The notes beneath the pieces were generated by a model. It searched no databases and had not been told where the DNA came from. It saw only the letters and a list, made by a program, of their open reading frames with translations. Below, in pieces: positions 2,166 through 59,003 of a stretch of 64,000 nucleotides of DNA. Position 1 is the stretch's first letter. Each line of letters starts with the position of its first letter. The DNA lies in NCBI GenBank assembly GCA_947450365.1, contig CANFVE010000001.1:26538-90537 (forward strand), in the 5' to 3' direction. Source of the stretch: Cytophagaceae bacterium (GTDB lineage: Bacteria > Bacteroidota > Bacteroidia > Cytophagales > Spirosomataceae). The translations under genes were made by a program, and so were the position numbers.

Positions 2166-2660
2166 ATGGAAGGAAAGAATCAAATCGTATTTCCGGCTGA
2201 GACGCTGGAATTAGTGGCTAAAATCATTAAACGCTATCCGGAGGGAAAGCAAAAATCGGCTTTATTACCGATTTTACATTTGGCTCAGGCGCAGTGGAGC
2301 TGGTGCAGTCCAGAGGTGATGGATTATGTGGCTTCTTTGCTACATATCAGTTCGGTGGAGGTATATGAGGTGGCTTCGTTTTATACGATGTTCCATTTGG
2401 AACCGGTGGGAGAACATGTGATTGAGTATTGTCGGACGGGTCCTTGTTGTTTAATGGGGGGAGTGGAAGTATATGATCATTTAAAACAACGCTTGGGAAT
2501 TGAGACCGGAGAAACCACGAAAGATGGAAAGTTTACGATCAAAGAGGTGGAGTGTTTAGCGGCCTGTGGTTGGGGACCTGTGTTTCAAATCCGGGAGAAG
2601 TATTATATGCAATTGTCGAAGGAGAAGGTGGATGAAATCATTGATGAATTAAGTAAATAA
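2166..2660 (+). CDS. nuoE: NADH-quinone oxidoreductase subunit E
   Basis: SALLPILH, EVASFYTMF, 2Fe-2S ligands CRTGPC and ECLAACGWGP. Confidence 0.96.
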   Translation: MEGKNQIVFPAETLELVAKIIKRYPEGKQKSALLPILHLAQAQWSWCSPEVMDYVASLLHISSVEVYEVASFYTMFHLEPVGEHVIEYCRTGPCCLMGGVEVYDHLKQRLGIETGETTKDGKFTIKEVECLAACGWGPVFQIREKYYMQLSKEKVDEIIDELSK

Positions 2661-2667
2661 GGCTGGG

Positions 2668-4008
2668 ATGAAGATATTAACCGAACATATAGACGTACCT
2701 CAAATTGAAACCCTAGCGGTTTACAAAAAGAATGGAGGTTACAAGGCGGTCGAGAAAGCCTTGAAAAAAATGACGCCGGATGAAGTGACGGAGGAAGTTA
2801 AAAAGTCAGGCTTACGAGGTCGTGGGGGTGCAGGTTTTCCTGTGGGGATGAAATGGTCCTTTTTGGCGAAGCCGGAAGGAGTGCCTCGTTATTTGGTATG
2901 TAATGCGGATGAATCGGAACCGGGTACCTTTAAGGATCATTATTTGATGTGGAAATCACCTCATACCTTGATTGAAGGGATGATTGTGTCGAGTTATGCC
3001 TTAGGGGCGAACACTTCGTATATCTATGTGCGTGGGGAGTTGATGTATGTGATTAATATATTGGAAAAGGCGATTCAAGAGGCCTATGACCAAGGATTAT
3101 TAGGTAAAAATATTTTAGGATCTGGATATGATTTGGATCTATTTGTCCAACCGGGTGGTGGTGCGTATATCTGTGGGGAGGAAACGGCTTTGTTGGAATC
3201 TTTAGAAGGTAAACGAGGTAACCCACGGAATAAACCTCCCTTTCCTGCGGTGAAGGGGGTTTGGCAATGTCCTACGGTGGTGAATAATGTGGAATCCATC
3301 GCGGCAACGTCTTGGATTGTGAACAACGGAGGGGATGCCTATGCGGCGATTGGCGTAGGAAGAAGTACGGGAACAAAATTAATTTCTGCCTCAGGACACA
3401 TTAAAAAACCGGGTGTTTATGAGATTCCATTGGGAATTACTGTGGAGGAATTTATTTATTCGGATGAGTGGTGTGGAGGAATTCGGGATGGACATAAACT
3501 GAAAGCTGTGGTGGCTGGAGGAAGTTCGGTGCCTATTTTACCGGCGGAAATGATTTTAACTACGGCAACGGGCGAGAAGCGTTTGATGACCTATGAGTCT
3601 TTATCTGATGGTGGATTTGCCACAGGAACGATGTTAGGTTCGGGTGGATTTATTGTGATGGATGAGACGACGTGTATTGTTCATAATACCTTGACTTTTG
3701 CGCGTTTTTATCACCATGAGTCTTGTGGCCAGTGTTCGCCTTGTCGTGAAGGAACGGGTTGGATGGACAAAGTCATTCACCGGATTGAGCATGGAAAGGG
3801 GCGTAAGGAAGATATAGATTTATTGGTGGATGTAGCGAAGAAAATAGAGGGGAATACAATTTGTCCCTTGGGTGATGCGGCGGCGTGGCCGGTGGCAGCG
3901 GCGATTCGTCATTTTAGAGATGAGTTTGAGTGGCATATTGAACATCCGGAATTAGCGACGAAGGAAGGCGCGGTATTTATGCGTCCAGGCGCTAGTTGGG
4001 CTCAATAA
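2668..4008 (+). CDS. nuoF: NADH-quinone oxidoreductase subunit F
   Basis: SGLRGRGGAGFP, NADESEPGT, GAYICGEET, ESCGQCSPCREG. Confidence 0.97.
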   Translation: MKILTEHIDVPQIETLAVYKKNGGYKAVEKALKKMTPDEVTEEVKKSGLRGRGGAGFPVGMKWSFLAKPEGVPRYLVCNADESEPGTFKDHYLMWKSPHTLIEGMIVSSYALGANTSYIYVRGELMYVINILEKAIQEAYDQGLLGKNILGSGYDLDLFVQPGGGAYICGEETALLESLEGKRGNPRNKPPFPAVKGVWQCPTVVNNVESIAATSWIVNNGGDAYAAIGVGRSTGTKLISASGHIKKPGVYEIPLGITVEEFIYSDEWCGGIRDGHKLKAVVAGGSSVPILPAEMILTTATGEKRLMTYESLSDGGFATGTMLGSGGFIVMDETTCIVHNTLTFARFYHHESCGQCSPCREGTGWMDKVIHRIEHGKGRKEDIDLLVDVAKKIEGNTICPLGDAAAWPVAAAIRHFRDEFEWHIEHPELATKEGAVFMRPGASWAQ

Positions 4009-16089: not shown

Positions 16090-16841
16090 TATTTTTCTGC
16101 CTGAATGAGGATGTAAGGCGCGAAGGCCTTGGTTTGGATGGGGAAAATTTTGAAGAATATTTTAAGGGGGAGCCAACAAGCCGTTTTAAGTATTTTTACC
16201 CACAGGGGCTGTTGTTTTTCATTTTCTAACCACAACATAAATCCACCTGAATAGCTTACCGAGATCTGTTTTAGGCCTAATTTTTCACATTGCCCGTGCA
16301 AAAAATTGATATCCATGCAAGGAATGTGGTGTTTGGCGTAATTTTGAGGATCAAATTGCCGTTGGAACCAGCCATTTAGTCCTCGAAAATTGGGCAAACT
16401 AACAAATAATTGTCCTCCTTTTTTTAAGTATTGAATGTGTTTGGACAGGATTTCTTCGGTATTCGGAAAATGCTCAATGAGGCCATTCGAAATGACTAAA
16501 TCAAACCAATGCAAACCTTGTCCGTCGGGAGCAAATAAATCCTTTTCCCATAGTTCAATCTCTGCGTTTAAATGGTTTGCTTTTTTTAAATCCTCCACGA
16601 TTTTGGGGAGGATGACAAAATCGAGTAGCGTGGATTGAACGCCTAACGCTTGGGTGGCCCAAACGGAATAATAGCCTGGGAAACCACCGATTTCGAGCAG
16701 ATTTTTAACTTGATGTGCCTGAATAGACTGTTTTAATTCACGCGTAAACGGGTAATTGGCAGGAATGGGGAAGGCTAGGCCCACTTTACTCAGCCAGTAA
16801 TTTTTCCAAAAATCGTAGTCGGTTAGCGCTTCTTGTTTCAT
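16089..16841 (-). CDS. Class I SAM-dependent methyltransferase
   Basis: LLEIGGFPG motif I, DLVISNGLIEHF, LKKGG. Confidence 0.82.
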   Translation of the reverse strand: MKQEALTDYDFWKNYWLSKVGLAFPIPANYPFTRELKQSIQAHQVKNLLEIGGFPGYYSVWATQALGVQSTLLDFVILPKIVEDLKKANHLNAEIELWEKDLFAPDGQGLHWFDLVISNGLIEHFPNTEEILSKHIQYLKKGGQLFVSLPNFRGLNGWFQRQFDPQNYAKHHIPCMDINFLHGQCEKLGLKQISVSYSGGFMLWLENEKQQPLWVKILKTACWLPLKIFFKIFPIQTKAFAPYILIQAEK

Positions 16842-18109
16842 TTCTTTTCAAAAATTTCGTGGAGCGTATGGGCGATTCGTTCGGCCGCATGTCCGTCCCA
16901 AAGTGGGGGAATACTGCCTTTTTTGACCTCGCCTGCTAAGATTTTTTCGAGGGCTTGGTAGGTTTTTTGCGGATCTAAATCGGCTAATAATTGGTTTGTG
17001 CCGAGGCTTACGGTCACGGGTCGTTCGGTCGAATCGCGGAAGGTTAAACAAGGGATTCCTAAATAGGTCGTTTCCTCTTGAATACCACCAGAATCGGTTA
17101 AAATAGCTTTGGCGTGACTCATTAATTGAATAAATTCCAAATAACCTAAGGGCTCAGTTAGGATCAGATTAGGAACGGCTTCCATGCGTTTCGTTAATCC
17201 AAATTTATCCATGTGGGCACGTGTGCGTGGGTGGATGGGAAAAACAATGTTGGTTTTTTGGGCGCTGAGTTCCATTAATTCTAGGATGGAATTGAGGCCT
17301 TTTTCGGTGTCAACGTTGGCCGGTCGGTGCATCGTCATCACGATGTAGTCCGAAGTCTGAAGTCCGGAGGCTGGGGTCTGTAGTCCGGAGGCCGGAGTTT
17401 GTAGGCCGGAGGCTGGAGTCTGTAGTCCGGAGGCCGGAGTTTGTAGGCCGGAGGCTGGAGTCTGTAGTCCGGAGGCTGGGGTCTGTAGTCTGGAGGCCGG
17501 AGTTTGTAGGCCGGAGGCCGAAGGCGAAAGGCCTAAGTCGGCGAGGATGGTGCTATTTTTCGCTTTTTCTTGATAGCGTACCAAAGAGTCGATCATGACA
17601 TTGCCGCTGAAAAATACTTTTTCATCGGGCACCCCTTCATTTTTTAAATGGGTGAGGCCACTTTCTTCGGTCACAAATAAATAATTGGCTACTGAATCTG
17701 TCAAAAGTCGGTTTAATTCTTCCGGCATGGTGCGGTCGAAACTTCGAAGTCCCGCTTCCACATGGGCGAGAGGAATTCCCATTTTGATGGCAACCAAGGT
17801 ACATGCGAGGGTCGACGTGACATCGCCTACCACAATAATAAGATCAGGTTTTTCATCCGCCACGATTTTCTCGAAAGCTAGCATGATAAGGGCTGTTACT
17901 TCCGTATGTGAGCCGCCACCGATGCCTAAAAAATAATCAGGTTTGGGTAATTCCAATTGGGTAAAAAACACATCGCTCATTTTGGCATCAAAATGCTGCC
18001 CCGTATGAACGATTTTGGAGGACCAACCCGTTAATTTTTGAATGGCTCGGTGTAATGGAGCGACTTTCATGAAATTGGGCCGCGCCCCGACTACCTGAAT
18101 AACTTTCAT
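16838..18109 (-). CDS. wecB: UDP-N-acetylglucosamine 2-epimerase (non-hydrolysing) with an in-frame tandem-repeat insertion
   Basis: VGARPNFMK, HTGQH, HVEAGLRS, PEELNR, DSGGIQEE, ERPVT; (ASGLQTP)x8 inserted before TMHRPANVD. Confidence 0.95.
   Translation of the reverse strand: MKVIQVVGARPNFMKVAPLHRAIQKLTGWSSKIVHTGQHFDAKMSDVFFTQLELPKPDYFLGIGGGSHTEVTALIMLAFEKIVADEKPDLIIVVGDVTSTLACTLVAIKMGIPLAHVEAGLRSFDRTMPEELNRLLTDSVANYLFVTEESGLTHLKNEGVPDEKVFFSGNVMIDSLVRYQEKAKNSTILADLGLSPSASGLQTPASRLQTPASGLQTPASGLQTPASGLQTPASGLQTPASGLQTPASGLQTSDYIVMTMHRPANVDTEKGLNSILELMELSAQKTNIVFPIHPRTRAHMDKFGLTKRMEAVPNLILTEPLGYLEFIQLMSHAKAILTDSGGIQEETTYLGIPCLTFRDSTERPVTVSLGTNQLLADLDPQKTYQALEKILAGEVKKGSIPPLWDGHAAERIAHTLHEIFEKK
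17348..17536. repeat. Heptamer tandem array (27 x 7 nt, 21-nt higher-order period) inside wecB
   Basis: plus strand reads GTCCGGA/GGCCGGA/GGCTGGA/GTCTGTA/GTTTGTA in register from 17348 to 17536. Confidence 0.97.
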
Positions 18110-18137: not shown

Positions 18138-18169
18138 CAAAGATAAAGGAAAAAGTTAGAAGGCCCGAA
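18138..18169 (-). promoter_or_regulatory. Putative wecB promoter (TTCG-N20-TATCTTTG)
   Basis: -7 box TATCTTTG at 18145-18138; near-consensus -33 TTCG at 18169-18166 within the terminal heptamer of the adjacent array. Confidence 0.5.
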
Positions 18170-18309
18170 GTCCGGAGGCGAAAGGCCGAAGGCATTAGTC
18201 CGGAGGCAAAAGGTGGGAGCCCGGAGGCGATAGGCCGGAGGCATAAGTCCGGAGGCAAAAGGTGGGAGCCCGGAGGCGAAAGGCCGAAGGCATTAGTCCG
18301 GAGGCGAAA
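18163..18309. repeat. Heptamer tandem array (21 x 7 nt, 49-nt higher-order period), left flank of the four-helix-bundle gene
   Basis: GTCCGGA GGCAAAA GGTGGGA GCCCGGA GGCGA(T/A)A GGCCG(G/A)A GGCAT(A/T)A repeated at 18198-18246 and 18247-18295. Confidence 0.95.
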
Positions 18310-18447
18310 GTTAAGTAGTCCGTAGGATTGAGTCGGCAAGTTGAATTTAAAGGATTTGTCAAAATTTCTATTTGGCGTCAAACTAAATTTAAATTATCAA
18401 CATATTGATACAATGAATTTTTTCCTTTTCGTTTTAAAAATTAAACA

Positions 18448-18816
18448 ATGGGGGTCACGAAGTTTGAAGATTTACACGTGTGGCAAAGATCTTTACAAAT
18501 TGCTGTAAAGATTTATCAATTAGTACAATCGAATAGGGATTTTGGATTTAAGGATCAAATTCAACGGGCCGTAACTTCTATTTCAAATAACATCGCAGAA
18601 GGTTTTGACCGAGGGTCTGATCGAGATTTTAAACGATTTTTGTTTATCGCACTTGCTTCTGCAAGTGAGGTACGGTCGCTCGTTCACCTTGGTAGGGAAC
18701 TTGGTTACCTAGATCATGAATCGCATAAACTTCTTGAAAAGGAATTAATTGAAATCAGATATATGATTAATGGCCTATCAAAAACATTAACTCGAACTTC
18801 AGTAAAAAAATTATAG
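18448..18816 (+). CDS. Four-helix-bundle protein (23S rRNA IVP / TIGR02436 family, Avd-like fold)
   Basis: FEDLHVWQRS, DQIQRAVTSISNNIAEGFDR, FKRFLFIALASASEV, LGYL: family hallmark pattern; 122 aa, AT-rich. Confidence 0.9.
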   Translation: MGVTKFEDLHVWQRSLQIAVKIYQLVQSNRDFGFKDQIQRAVTSISNNIAEGFDRGSDRDFKRFLFIALASASEVRSLVHLGRELGYLDHESHKLLEKELIEIRYMINGLSKTLTRTSVKKL

Positions 18817-18874: not shown

Positions 18875-19035
18875 TACGGCCTCCGGACTTTCGCCTCCGG
18901 CCTCCGGACTTTCGCCTCCGGCCTCCGGACTTTCGCCTCTGGCCTTCGGACTTTCGCCTCCGGCCTTCGGACTTTCGCCTCCGGCCTCCAGACTTTCGCC
19001 TCCGGCCTCCAGACTTTCGCCTCCAGCCTCCGGCC
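18875..19035. repeat. Heptamer tandem array (23 x 7 nt, 21-nt period), right flank, inverted relative to the left array
   Basis: plus strand (TCCGGAC TTTCGCC TCCGGCC)n = reverse complement of the GTCCGGA/GGCGAAA/GGCCGGA units. Confidence 0.97.
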
Positions 19036-20255
19036 TAACGACTTGCGGCTCTCGAAGAATACCTAAACGCCGCCAAATAATTCCCCAACACCGTATGAAT
19101 ATTAATCTCATTCTCGATGATTTCTCGGGATTTATCACCCATCGTTTTGATCTTGTCAGGCTCATGAAACAGCCAGGTGATTTTGGCAACCAAATCCTCC
19201 AAAGACCCCGATTCAAAATAATGCCCATTGATTCCCTCTTTGACCAAGCGCTTCTCCGTCCCATCCGCCACCGAACAAATCACCGGCTTTCCAAAACACA
19301 TCGCCTCATTAATCGATAAGCCACCCATGCCGGCCAACACATATATGCCCGCCCCCAAACTTATCTTTCCTAATGCCTCGAGTTCATAAATTCCTCCCGA
19401 AAAATGTATATAATCCTCCGCATCCGCGGCCCGAACCTGCGCTTGCAAGGCCGCCATTTCAGGACCATCGCCCACGATTTCCAGCTCCGTTTTTGGAAAT
19501 TTCTTCTTTAGTTCAATCGCCGCCTGGATGAGTAAATCCACTTGTTTCCATTTGACGAGTCGGCCGACGTGCAACAATCGAAACGGATGATGATCCACCG
19601 TGCCCTCTGTTTCTATCTTCTTTAAAACCCTGAAAATTTCATCCGTATCCGGCGAATTGGCCGTCACAAAAACCTTTTCGGAAGGCACCCCATAACTCGC
19701 ATGTAAGGCTCTTGCCTCATCCAGATAGTTAATGTGCGCATCCACAAGATTTGAAAATATGCGCCGAGTTTCTCGCACGATGGCGAATTTCAATTTGGCC
19801 AATATCGAACTACTTTGCTGATGCGCCTGCTGATTTTCCGTGACACCACCCCCCGCAAGATAATAGTCGATCGCTTCTTCGTAATGGGGCACCTGGAATG
19901 GAATTTCCTTGGAAATCAACGCAATGTTTTGCGATCGTAAAAAGCGATACCAAAATGGATAAAAGACAAACGAAACTTGGTAAGGCCAATTGACCATCAA
20001 AATAGTTGGCTTCTCCTGCAGAATCAATTCCCGCAGCCCTTTGAAGAATTTTTTGCCATAATAGGTGGTGTATTCTTCTTGAAAAAAGACCTTAAATTCG
20101 ATGCCCGACTGGCTTTCAAATACCCCTGCTCCCAACGTCGCCCCATTTCCTTTTGGCGCCACAACACAGACTTCCACCCCAAAATCCTTTTGCAATTTGT
20201 TCAAAACCAAATTGTAATAATGGGGCAAACCACCGGCCAACAACATTATCTTCAT
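19035..20255 (-). CDS. Glycosyltransferase family 4
   Basis: LLHVGRLVKWK, VGDGPE, GMGGLSINEAMCFGKPVI. Confidence 0.9.
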   Translation of the reverse strand: MKIMLLAGGLPHYYNLVLNKLQKDFGVEVCVVAPKGNGATLGAGVFESQSGIEFKVFFQEEYTTYYGKKFFKGLRELILQEKPTILMVNWPYQVSFVFYPFWYRFLRSQNIALISKEIPFQVPHYEEAIDYYLAGGGVTENQQAHQQSSSILAKLKFAIVRETRRIFSNLVDAHINYLDEARALHASYGVPSEKVFVTANSPDTDEIFRVLKKIETEGTVDHHPFRLLHVGRLVKWKQVDLLIQAAIELKKKFPKTELEIVGDGPEMAALQAQVRAADAEDYIHFSGGIYELEALGKISLGAGIYVLAGMGGLSINEAMCFGKPVICSVADGTEKRLVKEGINGHYFESGSLEDLVAKITWLFHEPDKIKTMGDKSREIIENEINIHTVLGNYLAAFRYSSRAASR

Positions 20256-58676: not shown

Positions 58677-58705
58677 AAAAGCCTCCGATTCGGGGGCTTT
58701 TTTTT
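58677..58705 (+). terminator. Rho-independent terminator
   Basis: AAAAGCCTCCG-att-CGGGGGCTTTTTTTT after the permease stop. Confidence 0.82.
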
Positions 58706-58713
58706 GGGTGTGG

Positions 58714-59003
58714 TCTTTGGCAATCCTTTTCGATACGATTTGGGCGGGATCTTTGGCAATCCTTTTCGATACGATTTGGGCGGGATCTTTGGCAATCCTT
58801 GCCAATGAAATAGGAGGACATTTGGGAATGGCGAGGTTTGCCAAAGCCAACCTGGCGGGATTTACCTTTGTCAAACCTTGAACCTTTCGTGCTTTAGGAC
58901 TTGCCAGGTTTAGGATTGACAAAGGGGCGGGATTTACCTTTGTCAAACCTTAATACTTTCGTGTTTTAGGACTCGCCAGGTTTAGGATTGACAAAGGGGC
59001 GGA
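58714..59003. repeat. Composite REP/BIME-like cluster: 36-bp x2.4, one 60-bp palindrome, 72-bp x2
   Basis: identical 36-mers at 58714 and 58750; 60-bp CTTTGGCAATCCTT..AGGTTTGCCAAAG at 58787-58846; 72-bp units at 58854 and 58926 with arms CCTTTGTCAAACCT/AGGATTGACAAAGG. Confidence 0.9.

Follow-up and report, generated by a model that had tools for sequence, protein, structure and literature searches.

We analyzed a 64,000-nucleotide (nt) stretch of DNA from a Cytophagaceae bacterium (contig CANFVE010000001.1), referred to here in its entirety as the window, with a focus on the gene wecB and the tandem repeat array that it carries. The gene lies at positions 16838 to 18109 on the minus strand and encodes a nonhydrolyzing UDP-N-acetylglucosamine (UDP-GlcNAc) 2-epimerase of 423 amino acids with its insert, as assigned from the open reading frame (ORF), the families PF02350 and TIGR00236, and an AlphaFold model. 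The product matched PF02350 with an E value of 2e-99 (333 bits, cutoff 30.6), with the insert splitting the match into two stretches, and scored 314.9 bits against the NCBIfam wecB equivalog model TIGR00236 (cutoff 210.15). Alignment with solved homologues covered residues 2 to 194 and 248 to 418, and nothing was aligned in between.

Within wecB, 27 heptamers (189 nt), equivalent to nine 21-nt units, form an in-frame tandem array at positions 17345 to 17533 on the minus strand, as defined by the heptamer and 21-mer register and by Tandem Repeats Finder (TRF). A 28th heptamer, CGACTTA, lies at 17534 to 17540. The units encode, in order, GLSPSAS, seven GLQTPAS-type repeats (one of them RLQTPAS), and GLQTSDY. 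Comparison with the natural allele L086/P0038 and with outgroups indicated that the final unit, GLQTSDY (17345 to 17365), corresponds to native sequence. Relative to alleles of the ancestral 84-nt length, the window has 168 nt extra (17366 to 17533, minus strand), which adds 56 codons (residues 195 to 250) just before the DYIVMTMHR strand.

The periodicity of the array is far above chance. Self-identity was 0.66 at an offset of 7 nt, with a longest exact run of 6 nt, and 0.79 to 0.82 at offsets of 21, 42, and 63 nt, compared to 0.15 to 0.29 at offsets 1 to 6 and 8 to 10. Exact runs reached 59 nt at the larger offsets, with offset 42 combining an identity of 0.82 with the 59-nt run. TRF scored the array at 239 for a period of 21 and at 264 for a period of 63. 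The unit number in the window rests on the assembly, as Logan short-read contigs break within the array and leave it unspanned and searches turned up no Nanopore or PacBio runs.

An earlier note on this DNA had placed the 27 heptamers at 17348 to 17536. The count and the 189-nt length hold, while the register shifts the coordinates by 3 nt. Its reading of the array as in frame and heptamer derived agrees with the register, the offset identities, and the TRF results. It had also put LGLSPSA near residue 192, with the repeats ahead of HRPANVD, and we located LGLSPSA at residue 192, DYIVMTMHR at 254, and HRPANVD at 261. The catalytic motifs that it called intact are indeed so, since GDVTSTLA, HVEAGLRSF, MPEELNR, HRPANVD, and DSGGIQEE are all present and align with 8sxv.

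Natural alleles of the wecB segment

We defined the segment as the sequence between the conserved anchors GNVMID and (T)MHRPAN and collected it from 80 genome loci (one per GTDB species) and 79 metagenome loci. Of these, 136 were distinct and had complete flanks, and the counts that follow refer to them. Relatedness was taken from average-linkage clustering of ungapped flank distances (amino acid). The closest relatives of the window were Aquirufa species and Cytophagaceae metagenome-assembled genomes (MAGs) from lakes and rivers, and the sequencing runs containing the sequence were freshwater metagenomes.

A segment of 84 nt was found in 58 loci, namely all outgroups (Arcicella, Flectobacillus, and the A. 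beregesia/nivalisilvae clade) and some Aquirufa. The segment was expanded to between 99 and 315 nt in 75 Aquirufa-clade loci, and a truncated contig beyond these 75, L207, carried a segment of 336 nt. In all 136 loci, the segment length was divisible by 3 and a single frame ran through both flanks.

Within the window lineage (flank distance of ≤0.02), segments measured 189, 252, 252, 252, 294, 315, and 336 nt, corresponding to 6, 9, 9, 9, 11, 12, and 13 units. GLSPSAS was always the first unit and GLQTSDY always the last, with the internal units reordered. Fixed end units with reordered internal units are the usual minisatellite signature. Length differences between close strains were all multiples of 21 nt. 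At a flank distance of 0.04, L086/P0038 had an 84-nt segment with one native-length unit, GGCCTTC AGACTTC GGACTAC, in a protein of 367 amino acids whose segment reads DLGLQTSDYIVM. As this relative has only 84 nt, the insert is dispensable. Including this close relative without an insert, the alleles of the window lineage range from 1 to 13 units.

These alleles bear on three further points of the earlier note. Its calculation that removal of 56 residues would leave a WecB of normal length, 367 amino acids, is matched by a protein found in nature. Steps of 21 nt were expected to alter only the length of the loop, and natural alleles do differ by 21 nt, or 7 amino acids. Finally, the strain comparison that it proposed revealed an array length that is not invariant.

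The same steps were evident in database proteins, in which WecB lengths climb by 7 amino acids (365/367, 372/374, 379/381, 386, 393, 400/402, 423, 437, and 444). Cultured Aquirufa antheringensis strains have WecB proteins of 386, 393, and 400 amino acids, and pure-culture Aquirufa genomes have 2 to 5 units at wecB. Three decayed units were present in L001 (distance of 0.03) and in more than 25 protein clusters of 381 amino acids. Length variation has ended in such decayed-repeat lineages, the 381-amino-acid alleles being an example.

Two side observations concern individual alleles. Many A. antheringensis-like arrays contain an irregular 24-nt unit (…ATAAERQL…, with the DNA sequence CGACTGA CGCAGAGCGG CAACTAG), a 3-nt insertion that was propagated with the repeat, so that the proteins are 380, 387, 394, and 401 amino acids long. 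It was seen in L046, L008, L002, L211, L212, and L216 and in proteins P0046, P0050, and P0062, among others. Separately, the metagenome locus L260 (coverage of ~3.8) has a 2-unit array and diverges from position 2125 onward, 15 nt past the array and after …DYIVMTMH. This divergence is not a frameshift within the array, and L260 is probably a chimeric assembly rather than a real disruption.

The insertion site in WecB

An AlphaFold model of WecB built from 52 homologues had a mean predicted local distance difference test (pLDDT) score of 71, with low values mainly within the insert. Both Rossmann-like domains of the GT-B-like epimerase fold were present, and Foldseek matched the model to 8sxw, 4nes, and 1f6d with a probability of 1.00 and target template modeling (TM) scores of 0.76 to 0.87. 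Across the 52 homologues, the catalytic and UDP-binding motifs (GD..ST, HVEAGLR, PEE.NR, HR, and DSGG.QEE) were invariant, and their residues presumably have the roles assigned to them in published work on E. coli WecB. By sequence, the best matches among solved homologues were Thermus UDP-2,3-diacetamido-2,3-dideoxy-glucuronic acid 2-epimerases (E value of 8e-85), along with an archaeal UDP-GlcNAc 2-epimerase, and E. coli WecB was far behind (E value of 3e-52). Because the closest structures belong to these Thermus and archaeal enzymes, the physiological substrate of the window WecB is not certain, and plain UDP-GlcNAc may be wrong.

The insert enters the loop between the last helix of the interdomain segment and the first β-strand of the C-terminal Rossmann-like domain. 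Its peptide is rich in Ser, Gly, Leu, Gln, Thr, Pro, and Ala. In the model, residues 197 to 248 had pLDDT values of 22 to 24 and no secondary structure, and a small β-bridge pairing 194-195 with 250-251 closed the base of the loop directly before the strand YIVMT (255 to 259). The insert is thus predicted to be a closed excursion whose two ends meet in the bridge, and the structure model that the earlier note had suggested for the loop gives a disordered insert. Ligands of Rossmann-like folds sit at the C-terminal ends of the strands. Since the loop enters at the N-terminal end of its strand, we infer that it lies at the far end of the strand and points away from the catalytic cleft.

A second, unrelated family of repeats has entered the same loop. 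In 12 loci of a sister lineage, WecB carries one to three in-frame copies of a repetitive extragenic palindromic (REP) sequence, GAAAATAGACGCGAAGTATCGCGTCTCTAC, which encodes DLENRREVSRLY-type peptides. The heptamer arrays and the REP palindromes having both settled there, the strongest argument that the WecB loop is simply permissive comes from these two unrelated families at one site.

We made several observations on the palindromes themselves. WecB loops with the REP-type palindrome GTAGAGACGCGATACTTCGCGTCTCTAC are found in L012 (3597 to 3690), L014 (3123 to 3215), L016, L023, L223, and L227 and also in L228, L230, L231, L233, L234, and L236. The spacers upstream of wecB contain an identical REP palindrome in L020 (2170 to 2270 and 2845 to 2950), L022 (2924), and L051 (2829 and 2921). 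The copies in L020 flank an ORF of 167 amino acids (2274 to 2777, minus strand) resembling a REP-associated tyrosine transposase (RAYT). It matched the RAYT model NF047646 with an E value of 2e-16 and 60 bits, below the cutoff of 80. A Pfam search with this ORF gave no match, and a PDB search gave a weak match to 4er8 (E value of 0.087).

The heptamer family and the neighboring arrays

All expanded alleles of the clade share the heptamer core xGMCTxx (where “M” is A or C), which occurs in all three codon phases. The heptamers are GGCCTCC, GGACTAC, and AGACTCC in the window lineage and CGACTAG and CGACTCC in A. antheringensis. The core is also found in the 84-nt alleles of the clade (CGACTTA GGACTTC AGACTTC GGACTAC), and the outgroups are without it. 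A set of 56 units taken from six strains showed near-invariant heptamer positions 4, 5, and 7 in every codon phase (47 to 56 of the 56 units). This invariant core includes third codon positions 12, 18, and 21 of the unit, while third positions 3, 6, 9, and 15 were highly polymorphic. The unit-to-unit dN/dS-like ratio in the same set was ~0.5. Because the core is kept at third codon positions while others vary, and given this ratio, the comparison of units argues that the array sequence is shaped mainly at the DNA level, with the peptide weakly constrained.

TAG-containing heptamers were confined to the two codon phases in which TAG is not read as a codon. Keeping these heptamers out of the stop-reading phase is what gives an intragenic heptamer array its 21-nt superperiod. 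The suggestion in the earlier note that the superperiod reflects a constraint on the reading frame is therefore well founded.

Arrays with the GMCT core also occur outside wecB. In the window, there are two, at 18159 to 18310 and at 18877 to 19051, and no further heptamer array was found in its other 62 kb. An intergenic CGACTAG array was present on another contig of an Aquirufa-clade MAG. On L315, a contig of the MAG that contains L025, AGTCCGAAG-type, AGTTGTC, and inverted CGACTAG/CGACTGA arrays adjoin one another in intergenic DNA (2450 to 2750), so heptamer arrays of several dialects cluster, and also form inverted pairs, beyond the wecB locus as well. Among the matches listed, GACT-core heptamer arrays (six cores at a 7-nt spacing) were common in Cyanobacteria and Bacteroidota. 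A scan of a genome collection with GCCTCCGGNCTNNNGCCTCCGG returned, among the matches listed, chance matches in high-GC genomes only. A protein search with the repeat peptide returned five short or unrelated proteins only and is uninformative, as it did not recover the known WecB alleles either. In the literature that could be searched, we found no link between Aquirufa and tandem repeats.

The wecB gene belongs to a polysaccharide gene cluster, with a GT1-family glycosyltransferase gene upstream and methyltransferase, GT4, and GT2 genes downstream. The GT1-family gene (19035 to 20255, minus strand; PF00534 E value of 2.5e-26) is a conserved neighbor of wecB in relatives. Directly downstream of the upstream array lies a putative −7 promoter box of wecB, TATCTTTG (TAnnTTTG; 18138 to 18145, minus strand), proposed on the basis of the consensus published for Bacteroidetes. 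In all close relatives, the motif CCTT(T)ATCTTTGTA is kept 28 to 40 nt upstream of the wecB ATG.

The array at 18159 to 18310 (CCGGAGG CGAAAGG CCGAAGG …, with a 49-nt superunit, identified by TRF and by sequence) is intergenic, lying between wecB and a four-helix-bundle gene, and has the same orientation as the wecB array. It is length polymorphic among close strains, with 417 nt in L207 (579 to 995) and ~150 nt in the window and in L081 (3799 to 3942). The four-helix-bundle gene, of the 23S rRNA intervening-sequence protein type (18448 to 18816, plus strand; 122 amino acids), matched PF05635 with an E value of 1.5e-32 and TIGR02436 with 114 bits. It is inserted between the glycosyltransferase gene and wecB and was found only in the window, L081, and L207, being absent from 80 of 80 species-level relative loci. 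On its other side lies the second array, at 18877 to 19051 (CGGCCTC CGGACTT TCGCCTC, 7.5 copies of 21 nt; TRF score of 272), which is inverted relative to both the 18159-18310 array and the wecB array. The 18159-18310 and 18877-19051 arrays are able to pair with each other along 115 bp, with a ΔG of −216 kcal/mol compared to −135 ± 6.5 kcal/mol for shuffled sequences (z score of −12).

The four-helix-bundle gene is thereby enclosed by inverted arrays, a layout reminiscent of an rRNA intervening sequence or of a small mobile cassette. At 19035 to 19051, the second array covers the stop codon and last codons of the glycosyltransferase gene (…RAASR*), and in relatives a short CCGGAGG-type array begins at the same stop codon. 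Relatives without the four-helix-bundle gene have, in the spacer between the glycosyltransferase gene and wecB, a hairpin-forming dispersed element consisting of CCTTTGGCAAACCTTAAAGTTTGCCAAAGG and then GAGACGCGAAAGCGTC (L083, 960 to 1010; L085, 105 to 170; L029, 1600 to 1700; L086, 1985 to 2090). At 58703 to 59002, the window itself has related 36-nt and 72-nt tandem repeats with CTTTGGCAATCC and CTTTGTCAAACC.

Explanations for the array and known systems

We think it likely that the array is an in-frame coding variable-number tandem repeat (VNTR) that arose from a heptanucleotide family, changes length by slippage or unequal exchange, and is filtered by selection in a disordered loop that tolerates it. 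The 21-nt unit would be a triplet of diverged heptamers from the GMCT-core family. Slipped-strand mispairing or else unequal recombination would shift the length, with offsets of 21, 42, or 63 nt. Slippage is expected in 21-nt steps because sequences offset by 7 nt are only 66% alike, whereas those offset by 21, 42, or 63 nt are ~80% alike with long exact runs. Slips of 7 or 14 nt would be rare, as adjacent heptamers are too different, and would be purged, as they destroy the enzyme. The peptide would then be a tolerated passenger with little or no function. What is expected of a coding VNTR was found here, namely, a unit that is a multiple of 3, a copy number that is polymorphic among close strains, and conserved flanks.

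Several points weigh against this explanation. The neutrality of the passenger is an inference. A loop with some use could also explain the dN/dS-like ratio of 0.5 and the fact that decayed inserts have long been kept. Three arrays fall within 1.7 kb and the remaining 62 kb of the window has none, which suggests a local process beyond simple slippage. Our counts describe consensus assemblies, which favor the majority, functional allele over any rare out-of-frame variant in a population. The distance from the loop to the active site, moreover, was reasoned from the fold.

The first alternative is an adaptive rheostat, in which the length of the disordered loop tunes the activity, domain closure, stability, or partner binding of WecB and unit numbers are selected by niche. 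The insert does sit at the junction of the interdomain segment and the C-terminal domain, the unit-level dN/dS is ~0.5 and not 1, and inserts have been retained over long evolutionary times even after the repeats decayed. However, the sequence of the insert is set by the heptamer core in the DNA and not by the peptide, very different peptides (SGLQTPA, SRLSTAD, and the REP-encoded DLENRREVSRLY) occupy the one site, and close relatives have insert-free alleles. We consider this rheostat unlikely.

It is also rather improbable, in our view, that a dedicated, sequence-aware process, and not generic polymerase slippage, makes and homogenizes GMCT-core arrays in Aquirufa, other Bacteroidota, and Cyanobacteria, with the WecB loop acting as its in-frame reporter and its length maybe exploited as a rheostat for a surface-glycan precursor. 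Such a process would fit with a heptamer core that is conserved at synonymous positions between species with flank divergence as high as ~18%. It would also fit the colonization of the same loop by two unrelated repeat families.

The earlier note had proposed a phase-variable contingency locus, in which gain or loss of one or two heptamers toggles wecB and so varies a surface polysaccharide containing N-acetylmannosamine (ManNAc). The 7-nt subunit is not a multiple of 3, and wecB does lie in a polysaccharide cluster with glycosyltransferases and a methyltransferase. Heptanucleotide tracts drive phase variation in some pathogens, but known phase-variable tracts are near-perfect repeats, and those of wecB are not. 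A 7-nt slip is disfavored because neighboring heptamers must pair, yet they share 66% identity with exact runs of no more than 6 consecutive bases, making them a poor substrate. None of the 136 distinct loci, 75 of them expanded, was out of frame, which by the rule of three places the frequency of OFF alleles among consensus alleles below ~4%. Lengths in close strains differ in multiples of 21 nt without exception. On/off switching by heptamers thus found no support, and we regard it as very improbable.

A role at the DNA level, in which the wecB region is rearranged or silenced by the three neighboring arrays acting as substrates for recombination or inversion or as regulatory elements, is likewise highly unlikely. 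All three arrays lie within 1.7 kb, the wecB and 18159-18310 arrays are direct repeats, the 18877-19051 array is inverted to both, and the outer two can pair over their 115 bp. However, the wecB array shares with the other two exact matches of at most 13 and 17 nt, and we rejected a recombination or inversion switch as the main explanation on this basis. Homologous recombination usually needs matches longer than 13 to 17 nt to be efficient. Among ~160 loci, there was no rearranged contig save for the low-coverage, probably chimeric L260, and wecB arrays also occur in strains without the flanking arrays and the four-helix-bundle gene.

Lastly, we rejected as scarcely credible an assembly artifact, in which short-read misassembly over repeats yields the array or its length: the breaks in Logan contigs, the several metagenome contigs that end at or near arrays, and an array (189 nt) longer than a typical read speak for it, but the independent assemblies, made from different samples with different assemblers, each have an array at this site with the same end units and different internal units, the 2- to 5-unit arrays of pure-culture Aquirufa genomes, which agree with them, are short enough to be spanned by single reads, and every array is in frame, which random misassembly would not guarantee.

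Taken together, we believe that a coding VNTR in a permissive loop accounts best for the array. An unsupported annotation of wecB as phase variable can be replaced by a documented series of 1 to 13 units in one enzyme loop. This series is a natural experiment on how far a GT-B-type epimerase tolerates a disordered insert, and it can mark strains at high resolution in the Aquirufa populations of freshwater metagenomes. The locus also shows the entry of heptanucleotide families, which are poorly understood and usually intergenic, into coding sequence by way of a three-heptamer, 21-nt unit.

Coding VNTRs and heptanucleotide simple sequence repeat (SSR) families are already known. The wecB array adds a well-documented case to them: its three-heptamer unit lies midway through a conserved cytoplasmic enzyme, and natural alleles span 1 to 13 units. 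The array resembles bacterial coding VNTRs and in-frame minisatellites in its effective 21-nt unit, its 6 to 13 units among close strains, its conserved flanks, and its preserved frame. Unlike in the usual coding VNTRs, the unit is a triplet of diverged heptamers, and the array is carried not by a surface or secreted protein but by a conserved sugar-nucleotide epimerase of the cytoplasm.

SSR-mediated phase variation is known from heptanucleotide tracts in Neisseria pgl genes and from tetranucleotide tracts in Haemophilus. The wecB array shares with these systems a tandem repeat with a 7-nt subperiod in a glycan biosynthesis gene but differs in that its units are imperfect at 7 nt, no OFF alleles were found, and all variation comes in 21-nt steps.

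Rickettsia palindromic elements (RPEs) are selfish repeats that insert in frame at permissive surface sites of protein-coding genes. As with RPEs, repeat DNA of a dispersed family lies in frame in a conserved protein that is not destroyed, and the sister lineage has a true palindromic REP sequence in the same loop of WecB. That REP sequence provides a parallel, in free-living Bacteroidota, to the in-frame palindromic elements of Rickettsia. The window insert itself, unlike RPEs, is a direct tandem repeat and not a palindrome, its length changes by unit number, and transposition is not implied.

The remaining comparison is with heptanucleotide repeats, an overrepresented class of long SSRs (LSSRs) in many bacteria that are mostly intergenic (PMC4679880, PMC4692102). 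The families described include the cyanobacterial short tandemly repeated repetitive (STRR) type and GGGAATC of Xanthomonas and Nostoc (PMC4679880, PMC4692102; Mrazek et al. 2007 as cited there). TAACTGA repeats occur in Beggiatoaceae, Cyanobacteria, and Bacteroidetes (PMC4679880, PMC4692102), and those inside ORFs are read in the open frame and encode heptapeptide repeats (PMC4679880). The wecB array has the tandem 7-nt periodicity with a common core that marks LSSR/STRR-type repeats. Its family is like theirs in this periodicity, in variable copy number, in the mostly intergenic location, near gene starts and stops, of the arrays found here, and in its occurrence in Bacteroidota and Cyanobacteria. 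As for TAACTGA repeats within ORFs, a stop-free frame yields heptapeptide repeats. The family here differs in its GMCT core (GGCCTCC, GGACTAC, and CGACTAG), and the wecB array differs in lying in the middle of an enzyme, where it now has a 21-nt superunit.

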